A stretch of 64,000 nucleotides of DNA from a phage. The notes below the pieces were generated by a model. It made no database searches and was not told where the DNA came from. It was given only the letters and a program-made list of their open reading frames with translations. The first letter of the stretch is position 1; each line of letters begins with the position of its first letter. The translations under genes and the position numbers were made by a program. The stretch lies in the sequence record PZ583738.1; one strand, written 5' to 3'. Positions 29,147-48,243 of this stretch are shown here, piece by piece.

Positions 29147-29180
29147 GGGGGTATACAAGCCCCCTGCTTTAAGGCATAAT
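29147..29180 (+). promoter_or_regulatory. GC hairpin overlapping an early promoter
   Basis: GGGGG-TATACAAG-CCCCC hairpin; -35 GTATAC inside loop, -10 CATAAT 18 nt later. Confidence 0.4.
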
Positions 29181-29246
29181 GATTCCATACTGAGTTACAC
29201 AATAAAACATTGGATAATAAAATATTAACCAACTGAAGGAAATACC

Positions 29247-33380: not shown

Positions 33381-34027
33381 TGGGAAGACCATTAGAAGAT
33401 TTGACTGGTAAAATTATTAATGGAATCAAATTTGTTTCGGTAGCATATAAAACCGCTGGAGTTTCTACTAAATGGAATTGTATTTGTCATTGTGGTAAAG
33501 AGTTTGTCACAGCCGCCGCTCGTATAAAATCAGGTAAAACCAAATCATGCGGCTGTCAGAAATATCATTATTCATTTATTTCTGACAAACCTACGTATTC
33601 ATCGTATGCTGCCATGATTGAAAGGTGTACAAATCCTAACCATCATCGTTGGAAGCAGTATGGTGGCGCTGGTGTACAAATATGTGATAGGTGGCTACCA
33701 AAGGGAAAAACTGGTTATTTGAATTTTGTTGAAGATATGGGTATTCGTCCAGCAGGTACAAGCATTAATCGGATAAATTCATGTAAGCTATACAGTAAAG
33801 AAACTTGCGAATGGGCTTCATCATCAATACAGTCATTTGACCAGGATACCCGAAAAGATTCACCTGGTCCAATTACAGGTGTCAAGTTTAGAAAAGACAG
33901 AGGTAAATGGATATCATATATTACTGTTAATCATAAAGAAATCCAACTTTACTATGGTGATTCTCGCGACGAAGCAATAGAAAGACGACGCACCGCTGAA
34001 TTGAAATATTATAATAGACAAAAATAA
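33377..34027 (+). CDS. AP2-domain endonuclease-like protein (homing endonuclease-associated family)
   Basis: 216 aa; YSSYAAMIERCTNPNHHRWKQYGGAGVQICDRW and MGIRPAGTSINRINS..CEWAS pattern, then C-terminal AP2-like segment ITGVKFRKDRGKWISYI..LYYGDSRDEAIERR. Confidence 0.45.
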   Translation: MMGRPLEDLTGKIINGIKFVSVAYKTAGVSTKWNCICHCGKEFVTAAARIKSGKTKSCGCQKYHYSFISDKPTYSSYAAMIERCTNPNHHRWKQYGGAGVQICDRWLPKGKTGYLNFVEDMGIRPAGTSINRINSCKLYSKETCEWASSSIQSFDQDTRKDSPGPITGVKFRKDRGKWISYITVNHKEIQLYYGDSRDEAIERRRTAELKYYNRQK

Positions 34028-34029
34028 TT

Positions 34030-34067
34030 GTGTACATCCAAGTGGGACTATGACACAATGGTCCCAC
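34030..34067 (+). promoter_or_regulatory. early promoter with stem-loop (PeSL-like cassette)
   Basis: -35 GTGTAC; inverted repeat GTGGGAC..GTCCCAC flanking the -10 region. Confidence 0.5.
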
Positions 34068-34086
34068 AATCAATGAGGAAAATATT

Positions 34087-34773
34087 ATGAACGGTCCGAA
34101 AACTTTTAATTCTAAAGCTCGTGCAGTAGGCGGATTTGCAGGTCATATTTCTAATGATGATATTAAAAACGAGCCTATGTTCTTTAACTGTGATTTGAAT
34201 TTTGCTGCACAAAATGGCGGTCCTATTACTCGTAGCTTTATTACTAATCTCCCTGATGAGTGGAAAGCCGTTGAATGTGTATTCGATTCTCGGGTTCATA
34301 TGTTGATGCCTGGTTGGTATCCTGCTATCCCAGGTTATCACCATGATGATGTGCCACGCCCGGATATTCCGGTTGGTCAACACTTTATTACTGCAGGGCA
34401 ACCTGATTATGATAATCCTCGTTACCATTCTGAACATATTCTTGGTCTTGTTAACGCTGATGTGTGTCCTACTTATTTTGCAACCGGAACTGCGCAATTT
34501 AGTCAGATTCCTGAAGGCGAACTTATCTATCGCCAGTGGCATAAAGAAGTTCTGGAAAAAATTGAGTCCAATGAATTAACCAAGTGGGATGCTCCTGACC
34601 GCACGTTGCTCCAGTTTGATTGGCAGACATGGCATACAGGTTCTCGCGCAGTAAGTAATGGTTGGCGCTGGTTTGGTCGTGTGTCTCGTAATACCGACCG
34701 TGTTAAAAAGATTACAAATGAAATCCGTGTTAATGCTCAAGTATATCTGGAATTCCCTATGGAGGGATGGTAA
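34087..34773 (+). CDS. hypothetical protein
   Basis: 228 aa; SD GAGGAAAA; no motif recognised. Confidence 0.55.
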   Translation: MNGPKTFNSKARAVGGFAGHISNDDIKNEPMFFNCDLNFAAQNGGPITRSFITNLPDEWKAVECVFDSRVHMLMPGWYPAIPGYHHDDVPRPDIPVGQHFITAGQPDYDNPRYHSEHILGLVNADVCPTYFATGTAQFSQIPEGELIYRQWHKEVLEKIESNELTKWDAPDRTLLQFDWQTWHTGSRAVSNGWRWFGRVSRNTDRVKKITNEIRVNAQVYLEFPMEGW

Positions 34774-36565: not shown

Positions 36566-36835
36566 ATGAAAACGTATCAAGAATTTTTGGCTGAATCTGT
36601 ATTAAATGAATCAGATGAAAGCCGCATGGCATTTTTAGCTAAGAAAGAAGGCTTTGAGTTTACTTCTATTAAAAAAGTTAATGGAACTTCATTTAAAGTT
36701 GGTGATTGGACCTTTGGTAACAAAGGAAGTGGCCAGTGGCAAATTGTAGATAAATCTGGTAAAGAAGTGGATTATTTGTTTAATCAGAAATTGGGTGATA
36801 TCGCTAAACTTATGGGTCAATACTCTAAGAAATGA
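36566..36835 (+). CDS. internal-protein-like small protein (CTS N-terminus)
   Basis: 89 aa; N-terminus MKTYQEFLAES; adjacent to e as ipIII/ipII are in T4. Confidence 0.6.
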   Translation: MKTYQEFLAESVLNESDESRMAFLAKKEGFEFTSIKKVNGTSFKVGDWTFGNKGSGQWQIVDKSGKEVDYLFNQKLGDIAKLMGQYSKK

Positions 36836-36872
36836 TGTACATCTCCAAATGATAGGGTTATAATGACCCTAT
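36835..36872 (+). promoter_or_regulatory. early promoter with stem-loop (PeSL-like cassette)
   Basis: -35 ATGTAC, 18-nt spacer, -10 TATAAT, inverted repeat ATAGGGT..ACCCTAT around the -10. Confidence 0.5.
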
Positions 36873-36890
36873 CAACTACGGAGAACAAAC

Positions 36891-37307
36891 ATGACACGTA
36901 TTAACTTAACCCTGGTATCTGAACTTGCTGACCAACACCTTATGGCTGAATATCGTGAGCTTCCTCGCGTGTTTGGTGCGGTTCGCAAACATGTACAAAA
37001 TGGTAAAAAGGTTTCTGACTTTAAAATCCCATCATCTTTTCTTTTAGGGACTGGTCATGTCACCTTCTTTTATGATAAACTTTTGTTCCTTAAAAACCGC
37101 CATCAAGAACTTATTGCGGAATGTTTAAAGCGAGGGTTTAACATAAAAGATATTTCTACCCAAGATTTAAATGATATTCCTGATGAATGGAAGAATGATT
37201 ATCAACCATCAATCTGGTCAATTGAAATCAGTCAAGCCAGACTGAATGAGAAAATTTCTCAAAAGCCTACCTGGTACAAATACTATGGGAAAGCAGTGTA
37301 CGCTTAA
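36891..37307 (+). CDS. denV: endonuclease V (pyrimidine dimer DNA glycosylase)
   Basis: 138 aa; [44 protein letters not shown] nearly identical to T4 endonuclease V. Confidence 0.95.
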
Positions 37308-45146: not shown

Positions 45147-45599
45147 ATGATTATCAATGCAAACTCTTGGCACGTTAAATTACACGACCGTTTTTATGAC
45201 CGTCATTCTCGACCACACTCTTTGTGTGCTTACTTCTGGAAAATGGTTTGGGCTTGTTTTGTTTGTGCTATTGCTGCAGGTAGTATTGGTTTTGGATTAA
45301 CTGTTGCTGGCGCTGGTGTATTAGAGCATTTCTTTGTATTAAGTACTCCTGTTGGTTTGGGTTTGGGTTTTATTTTAGGACTAGCTACGCTGGCTCTTAT
45401 TCTGGCAGTCGCATTTGGTTTGATGTATGGTCTAATGAATCTATGGACCTGGTATGATTTACGTAAAGAAGAAAAGGAATGGCAACGCATTAAAGCTGAG
45501 CGTGAAGGCCGAGAAACTAAAGAAAACGTTTTCATTCAATATATCAAAGCTCGTAAATCTAAGATGTGTCCTATAATCCATTTTGAGGCGAAGAAATGA
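45147..45599 (+). CDS. membrane protein
   Basis: 150 aa; two glycine/alanine-rich transmembrane helices. Confidence 0.5.
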   Translation: MIINANSWHVKLHDRFYDRHSRPHSLCAYFWKMVWACFVCAIAAGSIGFGLTVAGAGVLEHFFVLSTPVGLGLGFILGLATLALILAVAFGLMYGLMNLWTWYDLRKEEKEWQRIKAEREGRETKENVFIQYIKARKSKMCPIIHFEAKK

Positions 45600-46606
45600 G
45601 AACAGTTATGAAAGGCTACTTCGGTAGCCACCTTTATGGAACAAGTACTCCAGAATCTGATGTCGATTTTAAAGAAATCTTTGTTCCGCATCCTCGTGAT
45701 ATTCTACTTGGGACGGCGATGAACCATACCAACCTGAACACGAATAACACGGCTACCAAAAATACAAAAGATGATGTTGACCATGAGCTTTACAGTCTGA
45801 AATATTTCTTTAAACTAGCGGCTGAAGGCGAAACCGTTGCTCTGGACATGATTCACACCCCGGCTGACCTGGTAGTCAAATCCGATTTGCCAGATGTATG
45901 GAAGTTTATCCAGGATAACCGTTCACGGTTTTATACAACTAACATGAAAGCCTATTTAGGGTATGTCCGTAAGCAAGCTTCCAAATATGGTGTTAAAGGT
46001 TCTCGATTGGCTGCACTGCGTGGTGTACTGGCAATCGTTAACCAGATTCCTGAACAGTGGGTCGACTATCAAGAAGGAATCCCTGATAGACTTCGTCGTA
46101 CTAAGGTAGAAGATATCAAACACAGACTCCCTGAAAACGAGTTCTGTGAATGGGTATTCCATAACCATGAGAAAACAGGTCCACAAACGTTCTATACTGT
46201 TCTCGGACGTAAGTACCAAACCACCTTGTCTTTAATCGAGCTCAAGCAATCTCTGAATAAACTCGACGCCGAATATGGTGAACGTGCTCGTAAAGCAGAA
46301 GCTAACGAAGGTATTGATTGGAAAGCACTGAGCCATGCTTATCGTGCAGGGTATCAATTGATGGAAATCTACCAAACAGGTGACTTGGTATTCCCATTGC
46401 GTGAAGCCTCTATCATTAAGCTGATTAAAGCTGGTGAATTACCATTTAAAGAAGTTCAAGAACTTCTTGAAGATACTGTCGATTTAGTTGAAGTTCTGGC
46501 CATCCAGGCTGCTAAGAATGGTATGCCTGATAAGGTAGACATGAAGTTCTGGGACAAGTTTGTTGAAGAGGTATACCTTGACAACCACAATTCCTATTAT
46601 CGTTAA
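45596..46606 (+). CDS. polymerase-beta-superfamily nucleotidyltransferase-like protein
   Basis: 336 aa; N-terminal YFGSHLYGTSTPESDVDF matches the hG[GS]x(9-13)DhD nucleotidyltransferase signature. Confidence 0.55.
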   Translation: MRTVMKGYFGSHLYGTSTPESDVDFKEIFVPHPRDILLGTAMNHTNLNTNNTATKNTKDDVDHELYSLKYFFKLAAEGETVALDMIHTPADLVVKSDLPDVWKFIQDNRSRFYTTNMKAYLGYVRKQASKYGVKGSRLAALRGVLAIVNQIPEQWVDYQEGIPDRLRRTKVEDIKHRLPENEFCEWVFHNHEKTGPQTFYTVLGRKYQTTLSLIELKQSLNKLDAEYGERARKAEANEGIDWKALSHAYRAGYQLMEIYQTGDLVFPLREASIIKLIKAGELPFKEVQELLEDTVDLVEVLAIQAAKNGMPDKVDMKFWDKFVEEVYLDNHNSYYR

Positions 46607-46613
46607 TGAAGAA

Positions 46614-46802
46614 ATGAAGGTCTTCTTATCATACGGAAGACCTCATAAAGGTCGGCGATGGTATCTCGAAGCAGTCTGTCGGGAAACTGGTCGTCGAGTC
46701 AATATCAAGTACACATGCAAACCAACACCCAAGCAAACTCGCAGGTTTGCTAATTGGGCTATCAATAATATCAGATTCCATAATTTTTGGAGTGCAATCT
46801 AA
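46614..46802 (+). CDS. hypothetical basic small protein
   Basis: 62 aa from ATG 46614. Confidence 0.4.
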   Translation: MKVFLSYGRPHKGRRWYLEAVCRETGRRVNIKYTCKPTPKQTRRFANWAINNIRFHNFWSAI

Positions 46803-46826
46803 GGACCCCTCGGGGTCCTTTTTTAT
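46803..46826 (+). terminator. rho-independent terminator
   Basis: GGACCCC-TC-GGGGTCC hairpin followed by TTTTTT. Confidence 0.75.
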
Positions 46827-46886
46827 TTTAAAGGTGTACAAACTTGTCTCTGTTGATGCATAATGAATTTTTACTAAGGAGCCATT

Positions 46887-47063
46887 ATGAATCATATGAG
46901 ACCTCGCGTATCCAAACAAACGCGCGAAGAAGCGATTGAACATTTTAAACGCCATCATGGAAGTCAATCATGTGAGGTGATTGTTGGTATCGACATAGAA
47001 AAGATGAAGGAAACTGCCAAGCACTACCAGGGCAGGATTGATATTAAAAATTATATAAAGTAG
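46887..47063 (+). CDS. hypothetical small protein
   Basis: 58 aa; SD TAAGGAG; not in ORF track (<60 aa). Confidence 0.35.
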   Translation: MNHMRPRVSKQTREEAIEHFKRHHGSQSCEVIVGIDIEKMKETAKHYQGRIDIKNYIK

Positions 47064-47122
47064 TGTACATCAGTATGGGGATAGACGTATAATGTTCCCA
47101 TACTGAGTTACCAAATAAACAA
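47063..47122 (+). repeat. PeSL direct repeat copy 1 (early promoter + stem-loop + leader)
   Basis: About 55 nt nearly identical to 47653-47712 (one-base indel); -35 GTGTAC, -10 TATAAT. Confidence 0.7.
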
Positions 47123-47134
47123 ACGGAGAATAAA

Positions 47135-47341
47135 ATGTTAGAATTAATCAAAGCTGCTGGTGAAAAAGGTCTGATGGTTAACACTCGTGACCCTGAACAA
47201 CGTCAAGCATTTGGTGAGTTAAAAGCCAAAGGTCTGGTTAAAGCATCCCTTGGTATTGGTAATGCTTTGCGTGTGACTTTGACCCCTGCAGGTAAAGCAA
47301 TGTTCTTCCCTAAACCATTACCAAAACGTCGTCGCAAGTGA
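47135..47341 (+). CDS. hypothetical basic small protein
   Basis: 68 aa; C-terminal KRRRK. Confidence 0.5.
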   Translation: MLELIKAAGEKGLMVNTRDPEQRQAFGELKAKGLVKASLGIGNALRVTLTPAGKAMFFPKPLPKRRRK

Positions 47342-47347
47342 GGAATT

Positions 47348-47650
47348 ATGAAGAAGTATGAACTTGACATGATTGATGCATGTCTGAAATCTGCTGACCA
47401 TTTTAAGTTGAAAATGCACAAGTTAAGAGGAATGGTCAAAACTCCAGAAGAGAAGAAGCGATATGCTCTGAAGGAGAAATGTAAAGCTCTTATCATGATG
47501 GATAAGCTGCAAATGGTCGCCGCAGAAGCTCACAGGACACGTAAAGCTGAGGCCCTTGGTGTTTATATGGCAGAGCAGCTCCATCGCGCCCAGCAAGCCG
47601 TTAAGAGCGTCTGGTTCAGCGGTGAAAATACTGAAAGAACTTTTAATTAA
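47348..47650 (+). CDS. hypothetical protein
   Basis: 100 aa; SD GAGGAA. Confidence 0.5.
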   Translation: MKKYELDMIDACLKSADHFKLKMHKLRGMVKTPEEKKRYALKEKCKALIMMDKLQMVAAEAHRTRKAEALGVYMAEQLHRAQQAVKSVWFSGENTERTFN

Positions 47651-47652
47651 AT

Positions 47653-47712
47653 GTGTACATAGTATGGGGATAGACGTATAATGTTCCCATACTGAGTTAC
47701 CAAATACTGGAG
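47653..47712 (+). repeat. PeSL direct repeat copy 2
   Basis: Near-identical to 47063-47122. Confidence 0.7.
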
Positions 47713-47718
47713 AATAAA

Positions 47719-48243
47719 ATGGAAGCCAAATCAATCTTTAATCTGATTAATTACAATAATGGTAATTTTAAATCAGAAGCACAAAGTAAGTTCTTTAATG
47801 ATGTTGCTTGTGCAGGCGAGATTACAGTATCAGGTGGTCAGACTTATAAAAACGCCTGGAACTGGATTGTGACTGTTGATTCAGTTGGTATTGTTGATGT
47901 GTATAAAAACACCAACAAAAACCGCTCTTTATTCTGGTCAAGAGAGACTAATGCAGAATATCAAGCGGCAAGAGCAAAGAAAAATATGCCTACTGAATCT
48001 GATGTACAAAACATCAAATCAGATATCCAATATTATGATGGTCTGATTGCTGAACAACAAGCAGTGCTTGATAAGTTCAATGAAATCAAGGCGTGTAAAG
48101 AGATTCCTGAATTCATGAGGGAATCAGTTAATGAACAATACAATCTCACTTCAGAGCGTATTGAAACCTATACCAAACAAAGAGCAGAGCGCCAGGTACT
48201 CCTTCAGAAGTTTGAAGAGCGTTTAAAGACGGTTCTCGCATAA
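47719..48243 (+). CDS. hypothetical protein
   Basis: 174 aa; SD GGAGAA. Confidence 0.55.
   Translation: MEAKSIFNLINYNNGNFKSEAQSKFFNDVACAGEITVSGGQTYKNAWNWIVTVDSVGIVDVYKNTNKNRSLFWSRETNAEYQAARAKKNMPTESDVQNIKSDIQYYDGLIAEQQAVLDKFNEIKACKEIPEFMRESVNEQYNLTSERIETYTKQRAERQVLLQKFEERLKTVLA

Follow-up and report, generated by a model that had tools for sequence, protein, structure and literature searches.

Two near-identical predicted promoter cassettes in the nrdC region of a Gaprivervirus phage probably belong to a dispersed PeSL-type family and owe their likeness to exchange

Early promoters of phage T4 combine a GTTTAC-type -35 box and a TATAAT -10 box with an A-rich upstream element. To our knowledge, neither a hairpin over the -10 box nor a long shared leader is part of how these promoters are defined. 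Early promoters accompanied by a stem-loop, named 'promoter-early stem-loop' elements (PeSLs), were first described in the coliphages RB49 and phi1, where the stem-loops mostly lie between the -35 and -10 boxes or overlap the -10 box (Arbiol et al., 2010; PMC2839356). Promoter and terminator activities of these elements were demonstrated with lacZ fusions, recombination between neighbouring PeSLs yielded encapsidated mini-circles, and PeSL-like sequences were also mentioned in JS98 (Arbiol et al., 2010; PMC2839356). The class was extended to T4/PST and KVP40/nt-1, with a consensus specific to each lineage and with 'degraded' copies (Comeau, 2014; PMC4122927).

We analyzed a window of 64,000 nucleotides from a T4-like phage that belongs to Gaprivervirus, the genus of SP18, VR7, VR20, VR25, VR26, MN01, DK-13 and others. 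A literature search found no published description of PeSL-type elements in the SP18/VR7 group. The locus examined here is the nrdC hyperplastic region, with genes in the order nrdC.11, 58-aa ORF, ORF102c-like gene (gene A), nrdC.9, nrdC.8 and nrdC.6 (Table 1). Its nearest match over 3 kb is MN01, with 96.2% identity. Pfam families were matched at this locus by nrdC.9 and nrdC.11 only, and none was found for the 58-aa ORF, gene A or nrdC.8. Two near-identical direct repeats, P2 on the left and P3 on the right, bracket gene A and nrdC.9. These repeats probably belong to a family of composite regulatory cassettes with PeSL architecture, which is dispersed in the genome and found across the genus, their near-identity being due to exchange.

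Table 1. Coordinates of the features discussed, counted from the first nucleotide of the window (z, folding z-score).
Feature	Position	Strand	Description
GTGTACA-type promoter	22986..23043	+	hairpin encloses -10 box (GTGTAGG / CCTACAC); z = -2.62
GTGTACA-type promoter	23912..23969	+	hairpin encloses -10 box (GATGGGATAA / TTATCCCATC); z = -2.36
Family copy	27737..27794	+	shares GCATAATGATTCCATACTGAGTTAC 3' half, form-2-like
Family copy	28256..28313	+	own hairpin over -10 box (GGTGGGATAAT / ATTATCCCATAC), shared CCATACTGAGTTACCAAATAAA leader; z = -3.07
Family copy	28625..28682	+	no hairpin; shared leader CATAATGATTCCATACTGAGTTACCAAATAAACAAACGG
Family copy	29151..29208	+	G5/C5 stem at -35 box
GTGTACA-type promoter	34030..34087	+	hairpin encloses -10 region (GTGGGAC / GTCCCAC); z = -2.39
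ATGTACA-type promoter	36835..36892	+	hairpin encloses TATAAT (GATAGGGT / ACCCTATC); z = -5.45
nrdC.11	45596..46606		RlaP-type nucleotidyltransferase; Pfam match RlaP
Intrinsic-terminator-like hairpin and T-run	46801..46830	+	8-bp stem, 5 G-C pairs; closes the nrdC.11 transcription unit
P1, predicted promoter of 58-aa ORF	46834..46886	+	TGTACA-18-CATAAT, GTGTACA type, no hairpin (z = 0.11)
58-aa ORF	46887..47063	+	phi1p025-like; stop codon overlaps first base of left repeat
P2, left repeat	47063..47137	+	-35 TGTACA 47064-47069, 18-nt spacer, -10 TATAAT 47088-47093, 5' leader, GGAG, ATG of ORF102c-like gene
P2 hairpin	47070..47106	+	arms 47070-47083 and 47093-47106, 14 bp including 2 G-U pairs
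Gene A	47135..47341	+	68 aa, homologue of RB69 ORF102c and VR7 gp098
nrdC.9 homologue	47348..47650	+	100 aa; DUF7203 (PF23833, E = 1.1e-18)
P3, right repeat	47653..47721	+	-35 TGTACA 47654-47659, 17-nt spacer, -10 TATAAT 47677-47682, leader, GGAG, ATG of nrdC.8
P3 hairpin	47660..47694	+	13 bp, 9-nt loop containing most of -10 box
nrdC.8 homologue	47719..48243	+	gene predicted to be served by P3

The left repeat, 47063-47117 (55 nt), reads GTGTACATCAGTATGGGGATAGACGTATAATGTTCCCATACTGAGTTACCAAATA and recurs without C47071 at 47653-47706 (54 nt). This extra C is the sole difference, 54 of the 55 positions match, and the longest identical run covers 46 nt (47072-47117, equal to 47661-47706). When up to 3 mismatches are allowed, a 33-nt core occurs at exactly two sites in the 64-kb window and was absent from all 100 dinucleotide-preserving shuffles (0/100), i.e., no match is expected by chance. 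Past the repeats there is a short indel, AACAAAC on the left versus CT on the right, followed by the common ribosome-binding block GGAGAATAAAATG (47125-47137 and 47709-47721), where the downstream gene has its Shine-Dalgarno sequence and its start codon. Counted from the -35 box through the start codon, the repeated unit measures 75 nt in P2 and 69 nt in P3. The first-pass annotation had described near-identical 55-nt direct repeats that bracket two ORFs and had read them as promoter cassettes in the same orientation. This description holds: the ORFs of 68 and 100 aa lie where it had placed them, and the two motifs, TGTACA-18-TATAAT and TGTACA-17-TATAAT, each agree with the consensus at 10 of 12 positions. 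In a consensus scan of 4 kb, P2 and P3 were the two best sigma-70-type matches and are predicted promoters.

An A/T-rich tract precedes the -35 box in both cassettes (GATATTAAAAATTATATAAAGTA in the left copy, GAACTTTTAATTAAAT in the right copy), and an inverted repeat with the arms AGTATGGG/CCCATACT brackets the -10 box in both. The hairpin of P2 has a 10-bp Watson-Crick core and a 9-nt loop that contains most of the -10 box. The predicted RNA fold reaches -22.5 kcal/mol (z = -4.86), and none of 200 shuffles was equally stable; the value for the P3 hairpin is -19.6 kcal/mol (z = -3.19). No U-run was found 3' of the P2 and P3 hairpins and the terminator scan makes no call there, so the hairpin is not a classical intrinsic terminator. 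An Rfam scan of 46600-47900 gave nothing above threshold and no curated covariance-model match at the hairpin; the sole match in that interval was Atu_C8 over the terminator, which scored 19.7 bits (E = 0.63) where the gathering threshold is 50. The terminator-like site after nrdC.11 (46801) is the only such site nearby and is kept in all aligned relatives.

For the phage of the window, we infer promoter activity and its timing, the start sites and the role of the hairpin as an attenuator from this layout. Host RNA polymerase would start at about 47100 on P2 and about 47689 on P3. Both positions lie within the 3' arm of the stem, so that the mRNA made from each promoter itself would be free of the hairpin. 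RNAs coming from upstream would carry the whole hairpin, which is expected to attenuate or insulate read-through, as published for PeSLs. P2 would drive gene A and nrdC.9 as one unit, and P3 would drive nrdC.8.

Looser searches brought the number of GTGTACA-type elements in the window to at least 14; every one is on the + strand, intergenic and directly 5' of an ORF. They cluster at 22.9-23.9, 27.7-29.2 and 46.8-47.7 kb. Four copies carry the CCATACTGAGTTAC leader (27737, 28256, 28625 and 29151), and the other GTGTACA-type promoters lie at 22986, 23912, 32176, 34030, 36835, 39451, 46834 and 58093. All family members have their -35 box, -10 box and leader in common. A strong hairpin enclosing the -10 box, with z of about -2.4 or lower, was found in 7 of the 14 elements, with stem sequences that are unrelated to each other. 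Compared with random 58-mers, the 14 elements have a mean folding z of -1.74 versus -0.17 (Mann-Whitney p = 0.008). That a hairpin is kept at a fixed place with differing sequences points to a structural role and argues against a common protein operator. In the relatives there are 5-10 close copies per Gaprivervirus genome, and the subfamily is nearly confined to the genus.

At the level of sequence, the cassettes match the known PeSL class in six features. They contain a sigma-70-like early promoter, as judged by the consensus match, and a stable stem-loop within or adjoining the promoter (14-bp stem in P2, 13-bp stem in P3). Both copies have an A/T-rich upstream tract and, at the 3' end, a Shine-Dalgarno sequence with a start codon. 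The elements are repeated, intergenic and clustered in a hyperplastic region (14 elements in the window; nrdC region), and the association with indels or replacements was found for the left copy, not for the fixed module between the copies. As in RB49 and phi1, there are many copies per genome, they are concentrated in hyperplastic regions, and they stand beside indels or replacements that distinguish close relatives. Their sequence is unrelated to that of the RB49/phi1 elements: the -35 box is (G)TGTACA here and TTGACA there, and the stem AGTATGGG/CCCATACT takes the place of a G-run/C-run. Furthermore, P2 and P3 bracket a fixed ancestral module and not a strain-specific ORFan.

The T4/PST elements are closer in sequence, their consensus TTTACW-N17-TAYWAT resembling TGTACA-N17/18-TATAAT. 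With both T4/PST and KVP40/nt-1, the window shares the pattern of a consensus of the lineage's own in one common architecture, and of 'degraded' copies that lack the stem or a box beside intact ones. Whereas the stem-loops of PST are described as lying just 5' of the promoter, the stems in the window enclose the -10 box, as in RB49/phi1. Likeness to T4 early promoters themselves is seen in the location in the nrdC early region, the A/T-rich upstream element, the GT(G/T)TACA -35 box and the consensus -10 box.

Repeats at the same locus were also found in two other genera. RB69 (Mosigvirus) has direct promoter-core repeats, ATGTTATTATAGACCTATC, before ORF102c, nrdC.10 and nrdC.8, and in JS10 (Dhakavirus) a 43-nt exact repeat flanks a small unannotated ORF. 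The core sequences of RB69 and JS10 differ from the Gaprivervirus core, and copies are more alike within a genome or genus than copies at the same position across genera. The presence of repeats with their own core at this locus fits homogenisation within each lineage.

The two cassettes behave differently among the relatives. P3 was kept at its position in 12 of 12 genomes examined and in one metagenome contig, and it is 100% identical in 6 of 9 relatives, the flanking genes of which differ by 1-6%. P2 occurs in two forms. Form 1, which is P3-like with a strong hairpin and TATAAT, is present in the window, MN01, SP18, VR26 and PSD2001. Form 2 reads GTGTACAACCAGATGGTCATGAGGCATAATGATTCCATACTGAG, with CATAAT as its -10 box and a weak hairpin (z = -0.67), and is carried by DK-13, VR7, TH44, pEC-M719, TH41, VR20 and the metagenome contig OBRI01000039. 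Its identity to the right copy is 78-80% in the six that were scored (DK-13, VR7, TH44, pEC-M719, TH41 and VR20). In P479, P2 is a chimera that follows form 2 as far as the -10 box and form 1 beyond it, the switch point lying in the -10 box. Left-versus-right identity within single genomes spans 78% to 98%, and copies at the same position differ by few substitutions, each of which can be accommodated by G-U pairing. Judged from these sequences, the near-identity of the left and right copies is one allelic state of P2 and no footprint of a junction. It probably arose when copies of the family recombined with one another, by homologous exchange or gene conversion, and not through insertion of the module. 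Either P2 allele may be the older one, the outgroups RB69 and JS10 carrying unrelated promoter sequences at P2.

Just upstream of the left repeat the DNA is variable, and the gap between nrdC.11 and gene A exists in at least five states among the relatives. The gap is 113-114 nt in VR20, TH41, P479 and PSD2001, where the terminator is followed by the promoter, and 302 nt in TH44. The window, MN01, SP18 and VR26 have 526-531 nt with the 58-aa ORF, VR7 has 666 nt with gp100 and gp099, and DK-13 and pEC-M719 have 1082 nt with a reverse-strand gene for a Sf6-type tail-needle-knob domain. In relatives with the 'empty site', the terminator-like hairpin directly precedes the left promoter. Among Gapriverviruses in the database, the 58-aa ORF was found in SP18, MN01 and VR26 only. 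Outside the genus, its nearest homologues come from 45-48 kb phages of Salmonella and E. coli (71% aa identity) and from the Krischvirus phages phi1 and RB49 (52% aa). Since the nearest homologues belong to unrelated phages, the ORF is an import.

In the alignment, the indel that contains the 58-aa ORF is bounded by ATTTTAAAG-GTGTACA (P1) and ATATAAAGTAGTGTACA (P2), and the empty site reads ATTTTAAAAAGTAGTGTACA. Because these boundaries match segments of P1 and P2, the junctions lie within the repeated upstream and -35 segment, ATTTTAAAG(TA)GTGTACA. Megablast homology to many relatives begins at position 47050 or 47063 of the window, i.e., at the left repeat. At a second locus, homology breaks recur in more than 10 relatives, some near 27690, next to the copy at 27737, and others at 29211-29223, next to the copy at 29151. 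The association between family copies and breakpoints was thus seen at two loci. PSD2001 has form 1 without the 58-aa ORF, and its empty site is identical to that of form-2 genomes. We had considered that the P3-like left allele and the 58-aa ORF always go together, but dropped this since PSD2001 has the allele without the ORF. The state of PSD2001 means that either the ORF was inserted into a form-1 background, or form 1 arrived together with the ORF, which was lost afterwards.

The second of these possibilities can be extended to an alternative origin of the left repeat. P2 may have come as the 3' end of a cassette consisting of the P1 core, the 58-aa ORF and a P3-like promoter, which displaced a form-2 core; PSD2001 would then have lost the ORF by recombination between P1 and P2. 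As part of the same scenario, the crossovers would have taken place in the common -35 segment and in the common CCATACTGAGTTACC leader. The P3-like allele accompanies the ORF in all four of its carriers and the ORF is missing from the form-2 genomes, the homologues in unrelated phages indicate import, and the boundaries of the indel are repeats of the -35 segment, all of which would be expected from such an arrival. The allele of PSD2001 at an empty site, however, demands an additional deletion step. Furthermore, the left copy of VR26 resembles the P3 of other genomes, and there is no known donor in which the ORF stands beside P3. We therefore regard arrival together with the ORF, including the placement of its crossovers, as rather unlikely, though worth keeping in mind.

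Functional constraint on the promoter family could by itself keep the copies alike, with no recombination involved. The complete identity of P3 in most of the relatives compared, against the divergence of the flanking genes, agrees with strong constraint, and so do the -35 box, -10 box and leader common to the whole family. However, the 46-nt identity also covers spacer and loop positions that are wholly different in other active-looking members. In addition, P2 has two alternative alleles, and the chimera changes over cleanly within the -10 box; this pattern is a signature of exchange, not of convergence. Constraint as the only cause is thus improbable.

Exchange between family copies might itself be driven by the structure. 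The hairpin-bearing allele could be a quasi-selfish element that overwrites resident promoters, and the P2 series of form 2, chimera and form 1 would capture one moment of its structure-promoted spread. For example, a cruciform or hairpin over the -10 box would stimulate breaks, or template switching in the recombination-dependent replication of T4-type phages. If true, such spread would explain why copies within the genus are more alike than same-position copies between genera. We consider this idea a long shot.

It is highly unlikely that the inverted repeat is an operator, at which a dimeric phage or host regulator would occlude the -10 box and thereby co-regulate the two downstream genes. 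Symmetric arms flank the -10 box in both copies, as such a site would require, but the hairpins that other family promoters have at the same place possess unrelated arms. The half-site spacing, about 25 bp from centre to centre, is also atypical for helix-turn-helix dimers. Reading the inverted repeat as a protein operator was rejected on the ground that the stems differ in sequence among promoters.

The enclosed module, i.e., the ORF102c-like gene with nrdC.9, was found at 95% identity or more in 34 phage records, and the Gaprivervirus nrdC.8 is present in exactly 34 records. In every genome for which coordinates or sequence were inspected, the module stands immediately 5' of nrdC.8. The gene order in RB69 is nrdC.11, ORF102c, nrdC.10, nrdC.9, nrdC.8, with which the position of the module in the window agrees. 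In JS10 the order is nrdC.11, a small ORF, nrdC.10, an unnamed 113-aa gene and nrdC.8. A metagenome scan with the start of gene A gave one contig, which has the form-2 allele and contains the module. On this comparative evidence, the two genes are an ancestral, fixed resident and not a recent insertion. The first-pass annotation had seen in the repeats the footprint of a recent cassette-mediated insertion of the two-gene module and had proposed to check related phages for its presence or absence. That check went against the claim: the module is present in all 34 records with nrdC.8, in an RB69-like gene order, and this includes at least seven genomes in which it lies behind a divergent left promoter.

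Insertion of 47135-47650 as a cassette, for instance by integration of a promoter-bearing mini-circle with the repeats as duplicated junctions, would account for the direct repeats at both sides of the module, and the mini-circle model of PeSLs predicts exactly such a topology after integration (PMC2839356), but it is hardly tenable with a module that is present in 34 of 34 Gaprivervirus records with nrdC.8, keeps the gene order of RB69, has a divergent left promoter before it in no fewer than seven genomes (identity to the right copy 78-80% in the six scored), and is followed by a right copy that is conserved across genomes like the flanking genes, so that near-identity is no sign of recency.

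The same annotation had proposed that the repeats are a substrate for deletion by homologous recombination. The class is documented as a recombination substrate (PMC2839356, PMC4122927). The 34 database records include no deletion variant without the module, and the predicted P2xP3 deletion junction had 0 matches in IMG/VR, a negative that counts for little since IMG/VR contains only one normal locus. By analogy with the class, it is plausible that the P2/P3 pair can serve as a deletion substrate, although none of the sequenced genomes bears this out.

The repeats are expected break points in assemblies, and one metagenome contig ends inside the left copy. In therapeutic T4-like phages, they would offer predictable junctions for engineering or tracking accessory genes. 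The general understanding of PeSL-type elements is unchanged by the cassettes of the window. With them, Gaprivervirus, the SP18 and VR7 group, would join the T4-type lineages that have such elements, and P2, with two alleles and a chimera that switches in the -10 box, provides a clear case from nature of exchange within one of them.

The left promoter repeat of P479 (P2, which precedes the RB69-ORF102c-like gene A; L013:1440-1500) is a chimera of the two alleles found at this position. From the -35 box to the -10 box it is form 2, the divergent allele with CATAAT and a weak hairpin (ACCAGATGGTCATGAGGCATAAT), while downstream of the -10 box it is form 1, the allele with TATAAT and a strong hairpin (GTTCCCATACTG). 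The crossover falls within the promoter element. A form-2 left promoter is also where the fetched stretch of the 32.9-kb metagenome contig OBRI01000039.1 starts (L016:1-40), and if this is the end of the contig, the dispersed repeat is probably where the assembly broke off.

A second cassette-swapping locus of the window spans 27678-27790 and 29151-29223. More than 10 relatives show homology breaks here, at about 27690, within a terminator immediately 5' of a member of the dispersed GTGTACA-type cassette family, and at 29211-29223, immediately 3' of another member. At 34025-34090, promoter-like sites on the plus and minus strands have the palindromic hexamer TGTACA (34031-34036) in common, and could be a divergent promoter pair on one -35 box.

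Upstream of gene A, the upstream and -35 segment of P2 contains the final two codons and stop of a 58-aa ORF (window 46887-47063). Besides the window, SP18, MN01 and VR26 are the only Gapriverviruses with this ORF; homologues occur in Salmonella and E. coli phages of 45-48 kb (PSH-1, Akira; 71% aa) and in Krischvirus phi1 and RB49 (52% aa). In DK-13 and pEC-M719, the gap between nrdC.11 and gene A holds a gene for a 248-aa protein, in which an Sf6-type tail-needle-knob domain (PF16532, E = 2.6e-32) is accompanied by a weak match to collagen repeats. Such cargo is unusual in a T4-like phage. The product of nrdC.11 itself (window 45596-46606) matches Pfam RlaP, the RNA-repair-pathway DNA polymerase beta family nucleotidyltransferases (E = 1.3e-12). 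An 80-aa ORF of the window overlaps the nrdC.11 3' end, and VR7 gp100 has a similar overlap.

Coding features from the 3' end of nrdC.11 to gene A
Feature	Genome	Location	Strand	Remark
248-aa gene in gap	DK-13	L001:2208-2954	-	PF16532 match
248-aa gene in gap	pEC-M719	L007:2826-3572	reverse	PF16532 match
80-aa ORF	window	46560-46802		overlaps 3' end of nrdC.11

The RB69 promoters of ORF102c, nrdC.10 and nrdC.8 (L010:2380-4110) have ATGTTATTATAGACCTATC in common, and in that of nrdC.8 the stem AGGTCTAT/ATAGACCT lies over the -10 box. In JS10, an exact 43-nt direct repeat (L014:~700-1090; GTGTACATCTGCTTTAAACATGTTATTATAGACCTATCA) brackets a small unannotated ORF (MYAIKNYKYGSY...) in the nrdC.11/nrdC.10 interval; its architecture is like that of the Gaprivervirus cassettes, whereas the core sequence is different. 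Within one genome or genus, the promoter cores look homogenised.
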